From positions 352,001 to 416,000 of the IMG/VR virus record IMGVR_UViG_3300009031_000221: a DNA stretch of 64,000 nucleotides. One strand, written 5' to 3'. Every line of letters starts with the position of its first letter. Positions within the stretch are counted from its first letter, which is position 1. Both the position numbers and the translations under genes were made by a program. Shown here one piece after another: positions 33,650-52,154 of the stretch. This DNA comes from a virus. Its lineage: Duplodnaviria; Caudoviricetes. The notes under the pieces are model-generated. The model saw only the letters and a list, made by a program, of their open reading frames with translations, had not been told where the DNA came from and made no database searches.

Positions 33650-34852
33650 CTACCCCTTGGTCAGTGCATTCATGGCAGTGTCACTAAGGAATGTGGTTTC
33701 CGCACCCCAAATGATAACCGCCAGCAATCCGAGGTAGACGATACCCACAATGGCACGATCCCGCTTGGAAATCTCGTAGTAGCTAGGACTAGGGTCACGT
33801 GCTTTCATCTCCATGATGCCCACAATTGCCATGATGGCAAGCAACACGCTATGGAAGTAGATCGTTGCAACCACCCCGAATCCGAATCCGAACTTGATGA
33901 ACCGCTGAGACAATGCCTGCACAATTCGACCCCCGTCCATCGGAAGCATGGGCAACATGTTGAACAGGTTGATCACGAACCCAACGTAGGCAATAGCCTG
34001 GAGCATCGGGGAATGGTAGACCATTGCCAGGATCATCGTGACCAGGGCGCCGACAGTGCCTAGCAGCGGACCACCCAGGCCAACCATAGCTTCCTTCCAC
34101 GATGAAGCGGGCATTTCCTTCAAGTCAATGACGGCACCAACGAAAGGGATGAACATAGGAGCGGAGGCCTTGATCCCCATCCGACGAAGGACATAGACGT
34201 GTCCAAATTCGTGAATTGCCAGGAGGATGACAAACCCCGCAGCGAAGGGCAACCCCCAAGTCCAGGCGTAAACCCCGATCATGAACAACATGGACAGGAC
34301 GAACTTGCCCTTGGCCAGGAGCTTGAGGGCAAGGACTGCCGCCAAGGCAAGGTACTGGTAGCCGGGCATCTTTTTCAGGAGGTCGTGGAACTTCCGAATC
34401 AACCAAGCGAACGGAATGGCGACGACGAAAAGTACGAACATCAAGGGTTGAAGCATCCACTTCTTCATGAACTGGAATGCAGGGCTCAGGAATTTCACTG
34501 CCCTCTTGTAGACAGGTTCTACGACATCAATGGCCTTGACCACCTTCCTGAAGACAGCCCGCTCTAGGCGTTTTTCCCATGGGACGTAATTGTACTCAAG
34601 GTCGATCTCGGCGCCCATGCCCTTGAGGATATCCGCATGCCCGAAACCCCTGGTCTTCAGCCACTTGTCATCCTTGTTGAAACGGGCGTTGACGGTGATA
34701 TCCCACTCAGGGGAATCTAGCAGGATGGCAGCCGCCCGTTCGTAGGCAACATTCGCATCCGTAGCCGCCTTCGCGACAATGCCGCTATCGATGACGGTGC
34801 CCGGAGTTACCGCCTTCAGGTTGGTAAAGAACAATTGCTCAGCGGCGTCCAT
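33650..34852 (-). CDS. site-2 protease (M50 family) with soluble N-terminal extension
   Basis: HEFGH, GPLLG, NLFNMLPMLPMDGG; multiple TMs; start moved to MDAAE (GGAG SD). Confidence 0.9.
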   Translation of the reverse strand: MDAAEQLFFTNLKAVTPGTVIDSGIVAKAATDANVAYERAAAILLDSPEWDITVNARFNKDDKWLKTRGFGHADILKGMGAEIDLEYNYVPWEKRLERAVFRKVVKAIDVVEPVYKRAVKFLSPAFQFMKKWMLQPLMFVLFVVAIPFAWLIRKFHDLLKKMPGYQYLALAAVLALKLLAKGKFVLSMLFMIGVYAWTWGLPFAAGFVILLAIHEFGHVYVLRRMGIKASAPMFIPFVGAVIDLKEMPASSWKEAMVGLGGPLLGTVGALVTMILAMVYHSPMLQAIAYVGFVINLFNMLPMLPMDGGRIVQALSQRFIKFGFGFGVVATIYFHSVLLAIMAIVGIMEMKARDPSPSYYEISKRDRAIVGIVYLGLLAVIIWGAETTFLSDTAMNALTKG

Positions 34853-35144
34853 GGCGGCTCCTTGTCTGTTTGATTGCGGGCATTTTACCGGTGGCAAGCC
34901 ACCATAGGTAATGTCCCTCACATGGGACATACCCTTTGCCGGTTAGAATTGCATGCGTGTGGCGCGGGTTCAGGGTACTTTGCACACGTCGGGGAAGCCC
35001 TTCAAAGGGCGTGCCCTTCAATTTGGCATCAATGAGGTAGAGGATATTGAACTCAACCCCCATGCCGAAACGAATACCACAACACCACGGGATGCCATGC
35101 TTGCGGCCTTCCTTGGCCCAGTCCATGATGTCCCGAATCTTCAT
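34839..35144 (-). CDS. hypothetical protein
   Basis: ATGA overlap with the upstream stop. Confidence 0.5.
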   Translation of the reverse strand: MKIRDIMDWAKEGRKHGIPWCCGIRFGMGVEFNILYLIDAKLKGTPFEGLPRRVQSTLNPRHTHAILTGKGYVPCEGHYLWWLATGKMPAIKQTRSRHGRR

Positions 35145-41821: not shown

Positions 41822-42511
41822 ATGATTACATGCACATATTGCCAAATAGATCACATTGGGCCAGGTAAACTATGTCCTAAATGTGCGGTTGACCGACGAG
41901 ATGCTGCAAAAAGGCATCGGGAAAAGCTAATCCAAGCAGGATTATGTATTCGATGCGGTAAAAACCCGCCCCGACAAGGGCACAAAACATGTATATGTGC
42001 CCCAGAATACATGAAATCACGGTCGGATCGCCTTGCTAAATCTAAGCAATGTGTTGGATGTGCAGCCCCTCTACCCAAAGATGATACGCGGAAATGGTGC
42101 TCTGAATGTAGATCTGATGATGTTGTGCGAAATCAAGAACGCCGAAAGCAGCGCATAACGTCAGGTGTTTGTTTACGCTGTGGAGAAGACAGGCAAGGGA
42201 ACACTGGTTGGTGCCCTAATTGCCGTAGAAAGCTCCGGGATGAGGAACGCAACCTGAAACTTCAAGTTATTGCGGCTTATGGTGGGGCTTGTTCATGTTG
42301 CGGGGAATTGGATCCCAGATTTCTTACAATCGATCATGTGGAAGGGGGAGGATCCAAACATCGTGAGGAAATTAAAGGGAAATTGTATCGTTGGGTGCGG
42401 AACAATAATTTCCCATCCAGCCTTCAAATACTATGTTTCAATTGCAACTGCGGCAGATCCGTCAATGGAGGGGTTTGTCCACACAAGGATCAGCACAAGT
42501 CTTCGATATAG
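41822..42511 (+). CDS. HNH endonuclease with N-terminal CxxC repeats
   Basis: Repeated GLC.RCG..C units; YGGACSCCGE...LTIDH...LQILCFNCN. Confidence 0.85.
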   Translation: MITCTYCQIDHIGPGKLCPKCAVDRRDAAKRHREKLIQAGLCIRCGKNPPRQGHKTCICAPEYMKSRSDRLAKSKQCVGCAAPLPKDDTRKWCSECRSDDVVRNQERRKQRITSGVCLRCGEDRQGNTGWCPNCRRKLRDEERNLKLQVIAAYGGACSCCGELDPRFLTIDHVEGGGSKHREEIKGKLYRWVRNNNFPSSLQILCFNCNCGRSVNGGVCPHKDQHKSSI

Positions 42512-43171
42512 CCTTTCATATACCGTGCAGCTGTAGTGCGTTTTCCGGTAACGTGATGGACTACAATATCGTCCTGCATTCGTATGGTGATTGTCTTATC
42601 CCCTCTTGCGCCCCCACCTATCTGACCTTTCCGCACTCCATTAGTTTTATTGTGCCCCTCGGATTTCTGGGATTCTGCTAATCGTGCCCTCAATAGCTGC
42701 ATAGCAGTTACTTTGTTCTGAGTTTGGCTACGCTCTGATTCACACCGGACAAGAGTTCCAGTGGGGATGTGTAACAGCTGAACTGCGGAATCGGTCTTAT
42801 TCACGTGCTGGCCTCCTTTTCCCCCAGCCCGACAATAAGTCCATCGTAGGTCCTTATCCGCTATAGATTGTTCTTTGTCCGAAGGGACAACCAAAATAGC
42901 AACCGTTATCGTAGACGTATGTACCCTGCCCCGCTTCTCCGTAGGAGAAATACGTTGCCATCTATGGCCACCTGGTTCATTCTTGAATAGGTCAGAAGCA
43001 TTTTTCCCGGTCACGCGAATGACGACAATGCCGGGACGATCTTCTACGAGTTCGAGGTCAAAGGAAGTTCCGTTCTGCGTACCGGACATAGATGCCTAGC
43101 TGGTCATAAACCAAACCCTTCGCATCTGCACCACCTTCCCCCGATCTCACTTCAACGATTATAGTTTCCAC
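42490..43171 (-). CDS. class-I peptide chain release factor homolog (no domain 1), made by a +1 programmed frameshift
   Basis: GTG 43171 gives 37 codons (METIIVEVRSGEGGADAK...YVRYAERNFL) ending CTT-TGA-C at 43063-43057. The +1 frame continues DLELVED...GGHRWQRISPTEKRGRVHTS...GGQHVNKTDSAV, about 226 aa in total. Confidence 0.88.
43057..43063 (-). promoter_or_regulatory. prfB-type +1 ribosomal frameshift site CTT-TGA-C
   Basis: Minus strand ...CGG AAC TTC CTT TGA CCT CGA...; joins two RF-homologous segments without a gap. Confidence 0.8.
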
Positions 43172-43180
43172 GTTACCCCC

Positions 43181-44131
43181 TTAGATTCCGAGACGCTTGC
43201 ACACCCACCATGCCCAACTCTTGGACATTTTGAAGTGCTTGTTCAGTTGCGATGCTGTCAATCCAGCGGATCGAAGCTGCTTGAATTCTTCCTCCACGGT
43301 ATCAATTTGGCATGATGCTTTATGTTTGATGTTTAGCTTGTATTGGAAACACGGTGGACAAAATGGGCGGATCATTCTTACCAGGTCATTCCGTTGTCCC
43401 ACACGTGCCAAAGTCAAAATGAAGCCCCTTTGATCTGATCTACGATTCACTTTTGGAGTCCACCCATACAAATCATGTAGACGATCACGCAAAAATATGA
43501 CATCGGTCTCATCGAATCCATCCGTATGAAATACCATTCGATAACCGTGGTTGGATGTTGCACCATCACCCCAATACCAGTGGGCTAGGGAGATAGGGTT
43601 AAGGTCTACATCCTTTGGAATGCACTTCACTCCATCTGGGTACCACCGTTTACGTTGCTCTGTAAAGGGTTGGTATTTTCGGGTACGCAACATAACTGTC
43701 CCTTTGCCCTTAACGATGTTTCCATTGATTTGGCTATATCGAGGTTTTCGGATGCTCCGTGTACACTGAATGCCCGCGTTTATGAGTGCCACTTCCACAG
43801 CATCAACCCAACTTTCGTGTACGGGCGTTTGTTCTAGGCATAATCGACCCTCGCTATTTGCACTCAATTCAATCCAAGCATCCCCAAGCAACAAGCCATC
43901 TATAATACTTAGGAGATTCGGATCTATCAGAAATGTCTTATGCCGACCCAGATTTGACGCTTCTGTGGGTGTCCGCAGATCAACCCCCATATTAACCAAC
44001 CTGCGATGTATCGTTGTTCTTCCGACACCAAGTTTTCGACTGATCTCCGCTTCTGAAGATCCCTCGAGGTACATCGCTTGGATGTGATTATCAGGCAGTT
44101 GTTTACTTGGCCTTCCAACAGGATTAGACAT
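43181..44131 (-). CDS. LAGLIDADG homing endonuclease with HTH
   Basis: IIDGLLLGDA and LAHWYWGDG motifs; F.TDGF; N-terminal HTH. Confidence 0.85.
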   Translation of the reverse strand: MSNPVGRPSKQLPDNHIQAMYLEGSSEAEISRKLGVGRTTIHRRLVNMGVDLRTPTEASNLGRHKTFLIDPNLLSIIDGLLLGDAWIELSANSEGRLCLEQTPVHESWVDAVEVALINAGIQCTRSIRKPRYSQINGNIVKGKGTVMLRTRKYQPFTEQRKRWYPDGVKCIPKDVDLNPISLAHWYWGDGATSNHGYRMVFHTDGFDETDVIFLRDRLHDLYGWTPKVNRRSDQRGFILTLARVGQRNDLVRMIRPFCPPCFQYKLNIKHKASCQIDTVEEEFKQLRSAGLTASQLNKHFKMSKSWAWWVCKRLGI

Positions 44132-44224: not shown

Positions 44225-44542
44225 CTAAAGGTGCTTGTCAAGCAATTCAATGAGGGAAGCCTTGGGCTTTGCCCCAAAGGTCTTCTCCACTTCCTTCCCA
44301 CCCTTGAAGACCAGCAATGCCGGAATCGAGGCTACTCCGTAGGTATGGGTGATTGCTAAATTGTCATCAACATTCAACTTGCACACCTTCACACGCCCGG
44401 CGTATTCATCCGCTAGTTGATCCACAATGGGGGACAACATACGGCATGGGCCACACCAGGGCGCCCAGAAGTCGACTAGGACAGGCAAGGTGGAATTGAG
44501 GACTTCGCTTTCAAAGTTCTCGGATGTAACTACAACACTCAT
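44225..44542 (-). CDS. trxA: thioredoxin
   Basis: VLVDFWAPWCGPC, cis-Pro SIP. Confidence 0.95.
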   Translation of the reverse strand: MSVVVTSENFESEVLNSTLPVLVDFWAPWCGPCRMLSPIVDQLADEYAGRVKVCKLNVDDNLAITHTYGVASIPALLVFKGGKEVEKTFGAKPKASLIELLDKHL

Positions 44543-47092: not shown

Positions 47093-48049
47093 CTAGACGC
47101 TAACCCGAATGTTGCCTGCGCCCTTATTTCCATTGGCCTCACGAATCGTCTGAAGGATGCTAGCCTCCAGTTGTGCATGCTCTGGAGAAGCCGCCCATTC
47201 CGCCGTTCGTTGCTCCTGTGGGGGCAGATGAATGTCCGAGAGAATGGTTGCAGGGCGGGTAGACAACACAATGATACGATCCGCCAAGTCCAAAGCCTCA
47301 CCCACATCATGTGTCACGAACAGGATGAGGCATTGGTATTGCTTCTTCAACGCCTTGACCAAGTTCCGCATTTCGATGCGGATTGACGGGTCAAGGGCGG
47401 AGAATGGTTCATCCATGCACACGATCTCTGGGCGGACTACCAACGATGCCGCCAAAGCCGCACGTTGCTTCATACCCCCAGACAACTGCCGTGGAAACTT
47501 GTGCAAGGCATCCCCCAGGCCGACAGCCTCGAGGATTGCGATAGCCTTCTCCTCTACTTCCCGATGGGGCGCCGAACATGGAATCTTGCCACGCAATGCC
47601 GGGATGCGATCCGCCACGGACTTCAGCATGTCCTGAAGGAATTCCCACGGCCAACGGATGCGGGGACCATAAATCAGGGGTTTGAACATCAGCGTGACGT
47701 TGCCCAGGACGGTAAGCCAACGGACAAGCACCGGGGTTTGGAATACCGTGATGGTTTCATCCCGTGGCCCAGTGACCTCCTCCCCATTGATGAGGCACTG
47801 CCCCGCCGTGGGCATGTGCGTATTGGGAGGATACATGCCCGAAACCATGCGGAGGATCGTGGATTTGCCGCAACCCGAAGGCCCCAGGATTGCGATGGTT
47901 TCGCACCCTTCCGTCTTGAACGTAATGTTCTTGACGACTTCCTTCAGTCCTTCATCATCCTCAAATGACTGGCAGCACCCCTTGAATTCCACCGTCAAAG
48001 TGGGCTTGGCAACTGCCGCAGCGCCAACACCGTCTACTGATGCAATCAT
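47093..48049 (-). CDS. NitT/TauT-family ABC transporter ATP-binding protein
   Basis: GPSGCGKST, Q-loop FQ, LSGGMKQR, MDEPFSALD, FVTHD. Confidence 0.95.
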   Translation of the reverse strand: MIASVDGVGAAAVAKPTLTVEFKGCCQSFEDDEGLKEVVKNITFKTEGCETIAILGPSGCGKSTILRMVSGMYPPNTHMPTAGQCLINGEEVTGPRDETITVFQTPVLVRWLTVLGNVTLMFKPLIYGPRIRWPWEFLQDMLKSVADRIPALRGKIPCSAPHREVEEKAIAILEAVGLGDALHKFPRQLSGGMKQRAALAASLVVRPEIVCMDEPFSALDPSIRIEMRNLVKALKKQYQCLILFVTHDVGEALDLADRIIVLSTRPATILSDIHLPPQEQRTAEWAASPEHAQLEASILQTIREANGNKGAGNIRVSV

Positions 48050-48051
48050 GG

Positions 48052-48933
48052 TTATTCTCCTTCGGGGCTAAGCAAGTGGTGCTTCTGGCACAATTTGAAT
48101 CCGTAAATGGTCACGACACCAAGGATGATGACCTGAATGATGCCTGCGTAGATTCGTGGGCCGTTCTGCACACGGCAAGCGCCCGCAATGATGGCCCCTA
48201 GACCATTGGTGACATTGACGGTTTCCGCCGCCACAATGTATGTCACCGCAATGCCCGCACAGATGCCGACACCCTCAAAGATTCTAGGGGCTGCAGCAGG
48301 GATGACAAAGTAGAACAGGGCACTGAGCCGCCGGAACCCTGCATCAACCGCACGATCCTTGATCGCGGGGTCAACATTCCGAACAGCGTCGAATGTCGTC
48401 GGGATGATGTAGACCAGCGTGCCCAATGTCAAGAAGTTGACCTTTAGAGCCTCTGAAATGCCCCATACCAACATGAACAACGGCAGGAATGCCGTGATTG
48501 GCGCATTCCGCATCGGAGGAATCAGGAAGGCGAAGAAGGCTTCGATTGTACCAAATGCTCCCATGAGGATTCCCAGAGGGATCCCAATGAGGCATGCCCG
48601 TAGCACGGCACTCGCGATCCGGCTGACCGATGCCATCGTGCCTTGGACGCCACTGGAATACTTGAAGGACTCCCAACCCCAAGCCGGATTGATTGGCCGA
48701 AGCTGCCCGGTGACTGCATCCGGGATCCTGGCAGGGGCATCGTGAAACATCTCAATGTATGCGACTGCCGTAGGCCCCGGGCCGGGGAGGAAGTTGGGGT
48801 TGACGATCTTCGCATCCGTGAACATCGACCATGCCATGATGAAGGTCACCAAGCCTGCGATGGGCAGGACGTACTTGGCAGTTCCCGTGGCAGGAGTGCA
48901 AATAGGGTGTGCATGCTGGTGGTTACTGCTCAT
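48052..48933 (-). CDS. NitT/TauT-family ABC transporter permease
   Basis: IGIPLGILMG, R..P..AF.PL..L..G, EAA-like loop, AETV...GLG; start moved to MSSNH. Confidence 0.92.
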   Translation of the reverse strand: MSSNHQHAHPICTPATGTAKYVLPIAGLVTFIMAWSMFTDAKIVNPNFLPGPGPTAVAYIEMFHDAPARIPDAVTGQLRPINPAWGWESFKYSSGVQGTMASVSRIASAVLRACLIGIPLGILMGAFGTIEAFFAFLIPPMRNAPITAFLPLFMLVWGISEALKVNFLTLGTLVYIIPTTFDAVRNVDPAIKDRAVDAGFRRLSALFYFVIPAAAPRIFEGVGICAGIAVTYIVAAETVNVTNGLGAIIAGACRVQNGPRIYAGIIQVIILGVVTIYGFKLCQKHHLLSPEGE

Positions 48934-49207
48934 TGGCCCCTCTCTGTGCGTAGTAGGTGTCCATTTGTTCCCGGTTCGCCCGCACGGATGGATTGGCCTG
49001 GATGTAATCAACAAGCCCGTCAATCGTGTCCGTCTCAACCATCAGGCCATAGGGTGCGAAGGTCATGTATCGCATGTCCGCCCGCAACCCTGCACCACTG
49101 CGGGATACATAGGAACGGGGGTCACGGATCCCTTCGGGGACAACCAAGGCGAAGTACGACCCGCCCTCATCCCACAACACCCACACAGATTTGAGTTTAT
49201 CAGTCAT
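48923..49207 (-). CDS. hypothetical protein
   Basis: 94-aa ORF inserted in the ABC cluster. Confidence 0.5.
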   Translation of the reverse strand: MTDKLKSVWVLWDEGGSYFALVVPEGIRDPRSYVSRSGAGLRADMRYMTFAPYGLMVETDTIDGLVDYIQANPSVRANREQMDTYYAQRGANEQ

Positions 49208-49209
49208 GT

Positions 49210-50283
49210 TTATGCCTTCCTACGCTTGACAGCAAATCCCATGGTGGGGGTGACGAAACTATCGACCTTCGTGATAGCGAGGATGCCGCCAATGAATTCC
49301 ATGGGCATCTCGCCACCGAGGTACTCCCAGGTGAAATTTACGCGGCTGAGGTGGCTGGGGACGGCAGTGCAGTCATAACCGCTGTACCGGGTAAGCCCCT
49401 TCTCCCAATCGTAGAGCTTAGCATCCTTGGGGATGAACTTGTTGTCATCCTTCAAGGTGTAGTTCAGGAAGGCGGTAATCCATCCCGTCATGTCATCCGT
49501 GCCCGAACCCGACAGGTGCTTGTAGATGGATGACCAGAAATCATTGTCAAACGGAGCCCCATTCGCCTGTGCCGCGATCGTGTAGAGGACCGGAATCAGG
49601 TGATTGAAGTATTCTCCCAGGTGCTTCGGGAACATAGGCGCCAAGGCGATGCACGAATTCAACAGCTTGACGTAATCCTCCGGCTGGCCCAGCAAACGAA
49701 TCCGAGGAATGCCGCAACAGGTCATCACCCGGTAATCGTAGTAGGGGCTAGCCGCATCCATGAACGCCACCATCGATGCCGCACGACTCACGGGGGTATG
49801 CGTGCTGAAGGATGGGAGGGCGTTCGTCAACACGGTAGACGGCACAAGCTTGCCCATCTCCGTCTCAAACATCGGCAGCACGTCCAACCATGCGGTATCG
49901 GAATGTCCGGGCACAAGGCCGTCATGACGAACCCGAATGATTTCCTTCTCCGCCGAGGTGGTGAACAAATCCCGGTATTCATCCGGGTTTTGCTTGACCG
50001 TGACAGCAACCTCATGAAGCACGAGGTACATCAGCACTTCGGGGGACAATGCCAAGGGGTAGTGATTCGCGAAGCACGCATGAACTGCATGGAAGAACAA
50101 ACTGCCCTTGTTGTTGTGGTGCATTTCCAGGGTGTTCAACGGCATCCGGCATTCAACCAACCCCGAACCCGTAATGGCATTCAGGAAATGGTCTACTGGG
50201 ATCATCTTACTGGGGGCGGCGTTCTCCTTGACCTTCTTACGGCTATAGGAGTCATGAATGGTAACGTCAAAATCACAAGGCAT
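49210..50283 (-). CDS. DUF4419-family protein
   Basis: AVH.CF.NHYPL.LSP...CGIP.I.L.G..EDY..L, FW..IYK, GW...F; start moved to MPCDF (GGAG SD). Confidence 0.78.
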   Translation of the reverse strand: MPCDFDVTIHDSYSRKKVKENAAPSKMIPVDHFLNAITGSGLVECRMPLNTLEMHHNNKGSLFFHAVHACFANHYPLALSPEVLMYLVLHEVAVTVKQNPDEYRDLFTTSAEKEIIRVRHDGLVPGHSDTAWLDVLPMFETEMGKLVPSTVLTNALPSFSTHTPVSRAASMVAFMDAASPYYDYRVMTCCGIPRIRLLGQPEDYVKLLNSCIALAPMFPKHLGEYFNHLIPVLYTIAAQANGAPFDNDFWSSIYKHLSGSGTDDMTGWITAFLNYTLKDDNKFIPKDAKLYDWEKGLTRYSGYDCTAVPSHLSRVNFTWEYLGGEMPMEFIGGILAITKVDSFVTPTMGFAVKRRKA

Positions 50284-50313
50284 GGGGGTCTCCGGTGCGA
50301 ATGGTCGCATTCA

Positions 50314-50340
50314 ATCTACGCAATGGAAGGGGGAAGTAAG
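50314..50340 (-). promoter_or_regulatory. promoter-like motif, copy 14
   Basis: atctacgc-aatggaaggggg-aagtaag. Confidence 0.75.
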
Positions 50341-50344
50341 CGCA

Positions 50345-50377
50345 GGATGCCGGGGGAAAACGACTCCCCCGGCATCC
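50345..50377 (-). terminator. 13-bp GC-rich hairpin after the OmpA-SBP gene
   Basis: ggatgccggggga-aaacgac-tcccccggcatcc. Confidence 0.7.
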
Positions 50378-50387
50378 CGCTCAGGAA

Positions 50388-52154
50388 CTACTTGGCGGAC
50401 ACGAACACGATGTCAGTGCGACGGTTCTTCGCACGGCAATCGGCGGTCTTCAGGTTGCACACCGGGCTATCCGGGCCATTGCCCTGAGCCACAACCCGAT
50501 TCTCAGCCAATCCCTGCGAAATCAGGAACTGGCGGACTTCCTCTGCCCGTTGCTGGGACAGGGTGATGTTGCTAGCCTTGCTACCCACGTCATCCGTGTT
50601 GCCCTCGATACGGAAGCCCATGCCCTCTACCAGGCCAACCTGCGTCATGACCTGGGCCTTGAGGATGGAGCGTGCCCCGATGTCAAGCGACTTGGAACCC
50701 GTATCGAAGTTGATCGTAACCGGCTTGACCAGCTTCGGCTCCGCATTGGCAATCACGGTCGGGTTGTAGACGGGCTTCTCCGCCTCAATCGGAACCGCAA
50801 CCGTGCCCGTTGCCTGTGCCGCAGCCGCCCGGTGAGACTTCTCATCCTCGTAGATGGCCTTGATGATGCTACCGTTGCGGAGCTTGCTAGGCACGAACCG
50901 CTGCGTCAGGGCAGGCGAACCATCCGGCTCCGTGTACTCGGACCAGATGCTATCCGCCTGCTTGTAGACCGTATCGAACTTCGGGGCGGATCCGTCAATG
51001 CCGAAGTAGGCGACGTTATCACCCAAATCGTTCCACTTGACCCACTCCAGGGATGCTAACGTAGCGTCGTACTTCAGTTCATCGCGGAAGCGGGGTTCAA
51101 CCGTGGAGATCAACCGTGCCGCCGCCTTCTTGTCCGCGTTGCCGATGCGAGCACCCTCGAGGAAGATGCGGGCAATCTTCTCAGCCACGTCCGGATGTGC
51201 CGCCAAGAAGTCGCTACGAACCAACAGGTTATCGGCAACCAACGTATCCGCCTCCTTCGTGGAGAACACACGGTAGGCACCGGGACGGCAAGCAATCGCC
51301 AAGGACACATCCGGCTCCCACAGGCAAGCCACGTCGATCTTGCCCTGGCAGAACAGGTTCCGGGCGTACGTGTAATCGTCCATGCTGAATGACATGTTGC
51401 CCCGTGCCTTTTGCAGTTCCGTCGGGTTCAAGTCGCCATTGGTCAGCCACATTTCGAAGACCGTGTGGTCAGGCGAGTACTTGAGGACGGCGCCCTTGTG
51501 CGTCAGCATGTCCCGTGGGGACTTGACGGACTTGTCTGCAACGCAAGCGTCACCGCCACGCGACCAGTCGATCTGCATGACCGACACGGCATCCACAAGC
51601 GCCTTGGCGAAGCCCGGCAAGTTGATGGGAAGTTCGTCCGTCGTAGACCAGATGAAGTCCGCCGAACCCGACTGGAGGGCGGCGTTCTTCTTATCCGGCT
51701 CTTCGATAAAGATGAACTCCACGTTCAGGCCCGGGCCACTCTCCGGCTTGAGCACCGAACGAACCGTATTGCAAAAGGAACCTGCCTGGGGCGTCAAGCC
51801 ACCGCAAGCCAGGATGCCCGCCGAGTGACCGGGCCACTGCGACAGGGCAACCTTGCACGGACGCTGGCTGGCGCTACCACAGGAACCGGCAACGCCGGCG
51901 GGGACATTGGCTGCCACAGGCGCCGCAACCGGGACATTGACGACCTTGGTTTCCGGCTGACCCGTGGTTGCGTTGATGACCGGCTTGCCGGCGGCATCCA
52001 GCACGGGAACGGTCTGTTGTACCACCGCTGCCGCTGGCGCTGCAGCCTTGTCGAGGAACTTGGGGCGAACGACGAAGTAGTAAAGGGACGCCACAACGGC
52101 AACAAAGGCAATGCCGAGAACGGCTCGGCCCGCAGGTTGGATCTGAATAGCCAT
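50388..52154 (-). CDS. membrane-anchored NMT1/TauA-type substrate-binding protein fused to an OmpA C-terminal domain
   Basis: N-terminal TM; WPGH, D.S.GGD, D.A.LWEP; C-terminal INF.TGS...IEGNTDDVG...N..LS..RA..V...L...G.G..P...NRR. Confidence 0.9.
   Translation of the reverse strand: MAIQIQPAGRAVLGIAFVAVVASLYYFVVRPKFLDKAAAPAAAVVQQTVPVLDAAGKPVINATTGQPETKVVNVPVAAPVAANVPAGVAGSCGSASQRPCKVALSQWPGHSAGILACGGLTPQAGSFCNTVRSVLKPESGPGLNVEFIFIEEPDKKNAALQSGSADFIWSTTDELPINLPGFAKALVDAVSVMQIDWSRGGDACVADKSVKSPRDMLTHKGAVLKYSPDHTVFEMWLTNGDLNPTELQKARGNMSFSMDDYTYARNLFCQGKIDVACLWEPDVSLAIACRPGAYRVFSTKEADTLVADNLLVRSDFLAAHPDVAEKIARIFLEGARIGNADKKAAARLISTVEPRFRDELKYDATLASLEWVKWNDLGDNVAYFGIDGSAPKFDTVYKQADSIWSEYTEPDGSPALTQRFVPSKLRNGSIIKAIYEDEKSHRAAAAQATGTVAVPIEAEKPVYNPTVIANAEPKLVKPVTINFDTGSKSLDIGARSILKAQVMTQVGLVEGMGFRIEGNTDDVGSKASNITLSQQRAEEVRQFLISQGLAENRVVAQGNGPDSPVCNLKTADCRAKNRRTDIVFVSAK

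Follow-up and report, generated by a model that had tools for sequence, protein, structure and literature searches.

A phage RF1-type release factor probably expressed through a prfB-type +1 frameshift at a conserved early stop codon

How could a phage obtain a complete release factor from a gene that is interrupted by an in-frame stop codon? This question is raised by a class I peptide chain release factor (RF) gene located at 394.6 kb in the 536,053-bp genome of a groundwater phage (IMG/VR record IMGVR_UViG_3300009031_000221), within the 64,000-nucleotide stretch of DNA (positions 352,001 to 416,000 of that record) which we analyzed and refer to here as the window. Automated calling of open reading frames (ORFs) yields a protein of 199 amino acids that starts at ATG 43089, and its first ten residues are without homology, as the original prediction for this locus had pointed out. 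In another frame of the minus strand, a GTG start codon (43171-43169) opens a stretch of 37 codons ending in ...CGG AAC TTC CTT TGA C, and reading in the +1 frame via T-GAC gives ...NFL-DLELVEDRPG... and stays open until the stop codon at 42492-42490, just as had been proposed. Translated with the CTTT step read as leucine and allowed to fire once only, the fused product, P0001, has 226 amino acids and the predicted junction peptide NFLDLELVEDRPGIVVIR. A programmed +1 frameshift at CUU-UGA is a textbook peculiarity of RF2, the product of prfB. From the comparisons set out below we consider it likely that the full-length 226-amino-acid factor is made only through a programmed +1 frameshift of the prfB type, so that its yield would depend on termination at the early stop codon, which we call the gate.

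First, the two segments together specify one continuous protein. P0001 residues 3-225 match positions 105-334 of the RF1 model NF001859 in one unbroken stretch, residues 4-206 align with residues 88-296 of RF1 from T. maritima without a break at the junction, and the identity to the in-frame relative P0006 is 59% in a gapless alignment over 225 residues that includes the junction; the alignment across the junction, originally made by eye, is upheld. At the level of domains, residues 3-90 correspond to profile positions 101-194 of 194 of Pfam PCRF, and residues 100-192 match Pfam RF-1. The protein scores 201 bits against the prfA model, 156 against prfB, 95 against PrfH and 46 against ArfB, all four values lying under the equivalog cut-offs (400 for the RF1 model NF001859, 167 for the PrfH model TIGR03072). 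The GGQ motif is intact in the window protein, and G119, G120 and Q121 are invariant in the family alignment A1. The position of the stop codon-reading tripeptide is occupied by SPT in the window protein and mostly by PPT in relatives, with the threonine kept; of the decoding pocket of RF1, the factor also retains the Q and the T, and in structural comparison RF1 proteins match best. For the structural comparison we used an AlphaFold (AF2) model of P0006 (predicted local distance difference test score, pLDDT, 91), which superimposes on ribosome-bound RF1 with a template modelling (TM) score of 0.93-0.94 and a root-mean-square deviation of 1.6-1.7 Å, while RF2 and PrfH gave poorer fits. Residues 2-10 of this model form a strand and residues 15-34 a helix, and the junction falls in the loop ahead of the next strand. 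The N-terminal tip of this domain 2 helix touches the first base of the stop codon in both RF1 and RF2. Since the helix precedes the junction, a product initiated in the +1 frame would lack an essential decoding element.

We conclude that the gene product is an RF1-type class I release factor cut down to domains 2-4. It shares with canonical RF1 (prfA; NF001859, TIGR00019) these three domains, the GGQ motif and the decoding pocket QR..P.T...HTST, and it differs by the absence of domain 1, a score below the cut-off, the recoded gene, the SPT or, in most of the family, PPT tripeptide and an aspartate in place of the conserved glutamate in the GGxEA loop. According to Baranov et al. (2006, PMC1586002, citing Mora et al.), stimulation by RF3 requires domain 1, and codon-specific release can proceed without it. 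By analogy, the phage product is plausibly active and independent of RF3, and from the absence of domain 1 we would expect peptide release at stop codons without RF3-assisted recycling. We also considered that domain 1 might have been split off upstream by the insertion of a LAGLIDADG homing-endonuclease gene, and rejected this: the next gene encodes a thioredoxin, the RF gene is the sole RF-1 domain match in the 536,053-bp genome, and all relatives have a length of about 226 amino acids. The window factor resembles PrfH (RF-H, which is paired with RtcB) in its small size, its missing domain 1 and its GGQ motif; unlike PrfH, it retains a decoding motif of the stop-codon type, and it scores under the PrfH cut-off. 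The P0006 model fits PrfH with a TM score of 0.65 as compared with 0.93 for RF1. A PrfH-RtcB pair was rejected on this score and on distance, as the RtcB genes of the phage, at 234.8 kb and 463.3 kb, lie about 160 and 70 kb from the RF gene.

Second, the interrupted arrangement recurs throughout the family. We collected DNA of relatives from IMG/VR, GenBank phages and metagenomes and scanned three-frame translations with a family hidden Markov model (HMM); both this HMM and the in-frame group of the tree discussed below include the fused P0001 as one of 44 sequences, which leaves the frame calls unaffected. In the window gene, positions 2-36 of the HMM were matched in the 0 frame and positions 36-225 in the +1 frame. 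A switch into +1 at position 36-37 of the HMM was seen at 67 loci, and after removal of redundancy 61 of them, mostly from huge phages, remain. CTT stands immediately 5' of the 0-frame stop codon in every one of the 61 non-redundant frameshifted relatives. The stop codon is TGA in 45, TAG in 13 and TAA in 3; as to the base that follows, 49 have C, 11 have G, one has A and none has T. The consensus of the cassette reads CGGAGG-NNT-CTT-TGA-C. The CTT-stop cassette of the original prediction is conserved at the junction, and the homologs are neither uniformly in frame nor broken at random positions, given that 61 relatives shift at the same codon. Among the 12 in-frame relatives for which DNA was available, codon 37 is TTT, TTA, CTC, GTC, CTA or TTG, with CTT in only one. 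The enrichment of CTT at this codon (61/61 frameshifted versus 1/12 in-frame relatives; Fisher p = 3e-12) is far beyond chance.

The same signature is visible in protein databases, where the 120 nearest protein clusters comprise 43 that are in frame and 77 ORF calls that are truncated at the N-terminus; 48 of the latter span the junction, and every one of these reads F-D, F-E or F-S there, as expected for TTT in the +1 frame. Across 14 pairs of frameshifted relatives, the ratio of non-synonymous to synonymous differences (pN/pS) came to 0.24 over codons 1-37, read in the 0 frame, and to 0.25 over the 50 codons thereafter, read in the +1 frame. Each segment is therefore under purifying selection in its own frame, which argues that both are translated, each in its own frame. 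Synonymous differences between these pairs affect about 55% of sites before and about 69% after the shift, and to judge from these sequences the shift site has stayed fixed while its surroundings diverged. The cassette, its conservation, the homology of the fused product and the RF1-like fold of a relative are directly supported by these data. A profile search of metagenome and genome contigs with alignment A1 returned nearly exclusively canonical in-frame bacterial RF1, family matches being few because split matches rank lower; only two frameshifted members, L010 and L242, were recovered in this way. The latter lies at 1201-1876 of an 8.8-kb contig of a Nannocystis metagenome-assembled genome, that is, a contig binned with a myxobacterium, and carries CGG GAG CAT CTT TGA G.

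Third, many relatives carry an element resembling the internal Shine-Dalgarno (SD) sequence of prfB. A perfect GGAGG with a 3-nt spacer 5' of CTT is present in 27 of the 61 frameshifted relatives, and nine more match four of its five positions. This placement results from the coding of an Arg-Arg pair as NGG AGG, which puts GGAGG three bases 5' of CTT, and among members with Arg-Arg this codon choice is made by 28 of 30 frameshifted sequences as compared with two of five in-frame sequences with RRGL (p = 0.014). At this site, CGG AAC (Arg-Asn) is found in the window gene and in the clade closest to it, and CGGAAC, which is also found in the closest relative, L184, matches GGAGG at three of five positions; the internal SD had already been described as weak in the original prediction, and measured against the CGGAGG of the family it is.

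Several of these observations weigh against our interpretation. The presence of CGGAAC in place of CGGAGG suggests that the efficiency of the shift in the window gene may be low, and the SD-like sequence is in part a by-product of the Arg-Arg-Gly motif, given that GGAGG also occurs in the two in-frame RRGL relatives mentioned above. The variability of the tripeptide within the family (PPT, PPN, SPT, NKT and others) leaves the codon specificity of its members uncertain on sequence grounds. Moreover, an RF1-type product should not read UGA, and the self-limiting logic of prfB would not apply to this copy. Finally, in-frame sequences make up 43 of the 120 nearest clusters, and a quick IQ-TREE maximum-likelihood tree intersperses them with the frameshifted ones, its well-supported branches requiring 12 changes or more between the two forms. 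Because in-frame forms are common and interleaved, the gate is evidently dispensable and has repeatedly been lost or gained.

The in-frame relatives themselves show how this may have come about. L270 and L271 (proteins P0027 and P0029) have CGG AGA GGT CTT and CGG AGG GGG CTC at codons 34-37, which look like relics of a lost cassette. Together with the interleaving, such sequences fit repeated loss through deletion of one base, and gains are possible too. In three further members, codon 38 is itself a stop in frame, without a frameshift (L089, at about 1309-1317, L092, at about 1309-1317, and L106, at about 1300-1308), in the contexts TAT TAG ATG, CTA TGA CTG and CTC TGA CTG, respectively; a close in-frame relative, P0026, has tryptophan at this position. 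ORF lengths over 60 kb of each suggest that these three phages use the standard code, and their codon-38 stops may represent a read-through version of the gate or nonsense mutants. An in-frame, AT-rich clade with a guanine-plus-cytosine (GC) content of 27-42% (L002, L003, L014, L132, L149, L150, L155 and L163, including the GenBank huge phages LR745206 and LR756502) has in-frame TGA at the conserved family positions of about 37-42 and 50, and these are probably recoded phages in which TGA is read as tryptophan.

The cassette has much in common with that of prfB. In the window gene and its relatives, a P-site CUU directly precedes an in-frame stop codon, usually followed by C, a GGAGG-type element lies 3 nt upstream in most relatives and in degenerate form in the window, the +1 frame holds the rest of a class I release factor, and competition between release and slippage would set the yield. 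Unlike prfB, the phage gene is of RF1 type, and its site, codon 37/38, falls within domain 2, in the loop that follows the decoding helix, as compared with about codon 26, in domain 1; this agrees with the earlier claim of a different position, in domain 2 of a factor that has no domain 1, the RF1 profile match starting only at position 105. The phage family also uses TGA, TAG or TAA as the gate, and the product of a UGA-gated gene is not the factor that reads its gate. We conclude that the phage cassette works like that of prfB and is not a homologous copy of it, as gene type, position and range of stop codons all differ. Among 8,164 bacterial prfB genes, TAG never occurs in the motif, and the same survey detected neither conserved frameshift elements nor a programmed frameshift in bacterial prfA (Prince et al., 2025, PMC12421855). 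Recoded phages (Lak, crAss-like, Jade) and huge phages resemble the window phage in encoding class I factors within a large translation toolkit, and studies of both groups report RF1 and RF2 genes with no mention of a frameshift (Borges et al., preprint 10.1101/2021.08.26.457843; Al-Shayeb et al., 2020, PMC7162821). The window phage differs from the recoded phages in that it reads as standard code. A full-text literature search found no published description of this frameshift-gated RF1-type device.

How would such a gate operate? Following initiation at the GTG codon, 37 codons would be decoded, which would bring CUU into the P site and the poorly terminating UGA-C into the A site. Host RF2 would then either free a 37-amino-acid peptide at UGA, or the peptidyl-tRNA-Leu would slip from CUU to UUU and decoding would resume at GAC. 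The yield of full-length factor would reflect slippage versus termination at the gate and would be higher when termination at UGA by host RF2 is slow. Kinetic competition of this kind between CUU-UGA slippage and release is established for prfB, where it makes the yield fall as termination quickens. That slippage occurs, how efficient it is, how it responds to RF2 and which codons the factor reads are matters of inference. Because the product is of RF1 type, it is host RF2 that would read the UGA gate of the window gene, rather than the product. Autoregulation, one of two roles put forward in the original prediction, is therefore unlikely for this copy, as the prfA model outscores the prfB model and UGA is not the codon of the product. 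The term autoregulator fits the window copy less well than that of a throttle or sensor under the control of host RF2, whereas the 16 relatives gated by UAG or UAA could regulate themselves by feedback. The other proposed role, a gate that senses RF2, stood up in part: the stop-gated cassette is conserved, but it is not specific to RF2. Since relatives use TAG and TAA besides TGA, and a large minority of the nearest clusters is in frame, the common logic of the family is an early stop-codon gate and not the sensing of RF2 in particular. Whether the gate acts as a sensor of host termination capacity, as opposed to a fixed throttle, is close to an even question in our judgment, with the balance tipping slightly against the sensor.

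The most serious rival accepts the frameshift and denies the sensing. The gate would then be a fixed throttle that ensures a low, constant yield of a factor which is harmful in excess, and although we consider this somewhat unlikely, it agrees with several observations. The gate UGA is not cognate to the RF1-type product, the weak SD of the window gene predicts low efficiency, and overexpressed RF1 and RF2 lower fitness in B. subtilis (PMC12421855). The identity of the gate stop is likewise unrelated to the tripeptide and to the terminal stop: among the frameshifted family members we found no link between the gate stop and either the gene's own terminal stop or local GC content, and no supporting relation to the tripeptide, which begins with serine in one of 45 UGA-gated and four of 16 UAG- or UAA-gated members. 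However, slippage at a CUU-stop competes kinetically with release, as in prfB, so that a dependence on RF levels is built into the device; a weak start site would have been a simpler means to the same end; and the invariance of CTT-stop over 61 lineages despite near-saturated synonymous change points to selection for this device.

An autoregulatory loop like that of prfB would be restored if the window factor itself read UGA. Its SPT combines the serine of the RF2 motif SPF with the threonine of the RF1 motif PxT and stands where relatives have PPT, and Ito and colleagues reportedly proposed in 2000 that the first residue of the tripeptide governs recognition of the second base and the third residue that of the third base. 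We regard this reading as doubtful. The single UGA-gated member with a serine in first place is the window gene itself, so that the distribution of such tripeptides over the gates given above is opposite to the prediction; the closest of the relatives that share its UGA gate have PPT, and the remaining decoding pocket is RF1-like.

It is much less probable still that the locus is a split gene, from which a 37-amino-acid peptide and a C-terminal part of 190 amino acids are made separately, by internal initiation or by termination and reinitiation, and then assemble. The ATG at 43089 does lie in the +1 frame, 27 nt 5' of the stop, and many relatives have an SD-like element near the junction. Yet +1-frame starts 5' of the junction are not conserved, 29 of the 77 truncated calls start 3' of it, and some truncated calls begin at non-ATG codons within the homologous part. 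No in-frame start codon that is conserved near the junction was apparent on reading the sequences, the sole TTG of the heptamer is in the wrong frame, and under reinitiation there would be no reason for an invariant CTT. In the P0006 model, strand beta-1 and the decoding helix are moreover integral to domain 2.

An indel from assembly or sequencing, or the decay of a pseudogene, would explain the frame break by one extra base at a locus marked as mobile by the upstream homing endonuclease, but this explanation is hardly credible, as the 199-amino-acid ORF is identical on 12 contigs and two Logan assemblies of other runs have 0 mismatches to the window over about 1.8 kb (all of these sequences coming from groundwater metagenomes of one study, possibly the source study), 61 non-redundant relatives are broken at this very codon and by the same CTT-stop, and both parts are under purifying selection. 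We also rejected an alternative genetic code, given that 410 long ORFs cover 77% of the phage genome under code 11; UGA as a sense codon, after which the 0 frame is without homology and reaches a stop 21 codons on, the homology running in the +1 frame; and transcriptional slippage, as the site offers only three consecutive T residues.

If the frameshift is accepted, a wider view of the family can be put forward, which we offer tentatively and consider possible rather than probable: huge phages, and some myxobacterial DNA, would carry RF3-independent RF1-type mini release factors whose genes are gated at codon 38, usually by a +1 shift at a CUU-stop and in a few members by an in-frame stop, and which read out termination capacity. 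Failing host RF2, be it through host shut-off, a defence response or another cause, would switch on the UGA-gated copies, such as that of the window, and copies gated by UAG or UAA would represent the first natural RF1-type autoregulatory loop. A cassette like that of prfB has here been built at another position in an RF1-type gene, with all three stop codons, in viruses that bring their own translation toolkit, and it offers a possible phage route to couple a termination factor to the termination state of the host. The naturally occurring combinations of CUU with UGA, UAG or UAA, next to SD elements that are strong or weak, provide material for studying slippage versus release. There is also a practical consequence, as standard gene callers truncate such genes and leave 77 of the 120 nearest database entries without the decoding helix.

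The translation context of the phage gives some indication of why it might carry such a factor. Its 410 long ORFs end in TGA in 157 cases, TAG in 130 (32%) and TAA in 123, and TGA-C is the rarest TGA context at real gene ends (27/157). TAG is read by RF1 only, and a TAG usage of 32% gives a plausible reason for carrying an RF1-type factor. Outside the window, 67 tRNAs and a transfer-messenger RNA (tag ANDNVEFTSFAAAA) are encoded in the phage genome at 208343-259393. They include a tRNA-Leu(GAG) at 209632-209719, an isoacceptor type which decodes CUU through wobble pairing and undergoes slippage in prfB, and an odd tRNA call with a four-base anticodon (tgaa) at 213498-213586. ARAGORN additionally predicted a 90-nt tRNA with the anticodon UUA, of the ochre-suppressor type, at genome position 483473-483562, yet TAA is in regular use as a terminator in the long ORFs.

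Table 1. Features of the release factor locus, with positions counted from the first letter of the window
Feature	Position	Strand	Remarks
SD-like element GGGGG	43176..43180	-	4 nt 5' of the GTG start; read from the sequence
0-frame segment, codons 1-37 (GTG...CTT)	43061..43171	-	Strand beta-1, GEGGADA loop and decoding helix of RF domain 2
Internal SD-like element CGGAAC, degenerate	43067..43072	-	3 nt (TTC) 5' of CTT; family consensus at this site CGGAGG
Shift heptamer CTT TGA C	43057..43063	-	CTT 43063-43061, TGA 43060-43058, C 43057
+1-frame segment, GAC (codon 38) to TGA stop (42492-42490)	42490..43059	-	Rest of domain 2 with SPT, domain 3 with GGQ, domain 4
LAGLIDADG homing-endonuclease gene	43181..44131	-	Directly upstream of the RF start; Pfam LAGLIDADG_2, 4e-25
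Convergent Cys-rich ORF	41822..42511	+	HNH-like motif by eye; match limited to a weak one to DZR_2; 22-nt overlap with the RF 3' end

The genes that flank the RF gene are listed in Table 1. The LAGLIDADG endonuclease has an N-terminal helix-turn-helix, its gene lies between the thioredoxin gene (44225-44542) and the RF start, and its TAA stop (43183-43181) directly adjoins the GGGGG element of the RF gene. The closest relative, L184, is without the endonuclease and has a gene for a 92-amino-acid protein in its place; being absent there, the LAGLIDADG gene is a recent insertion. The convergent Cys-rich ORF at the other end of the RF gene is also present in L184. Further genes on the minus strand of the window, at 47093-52154 and 33650-34930, encode the ATPase and permease of an ATP-binding cassette (ABC) transporter, a DUF4419 protein, a 588-amino-acid OmpA-domain protein and an M50-family peptidase.

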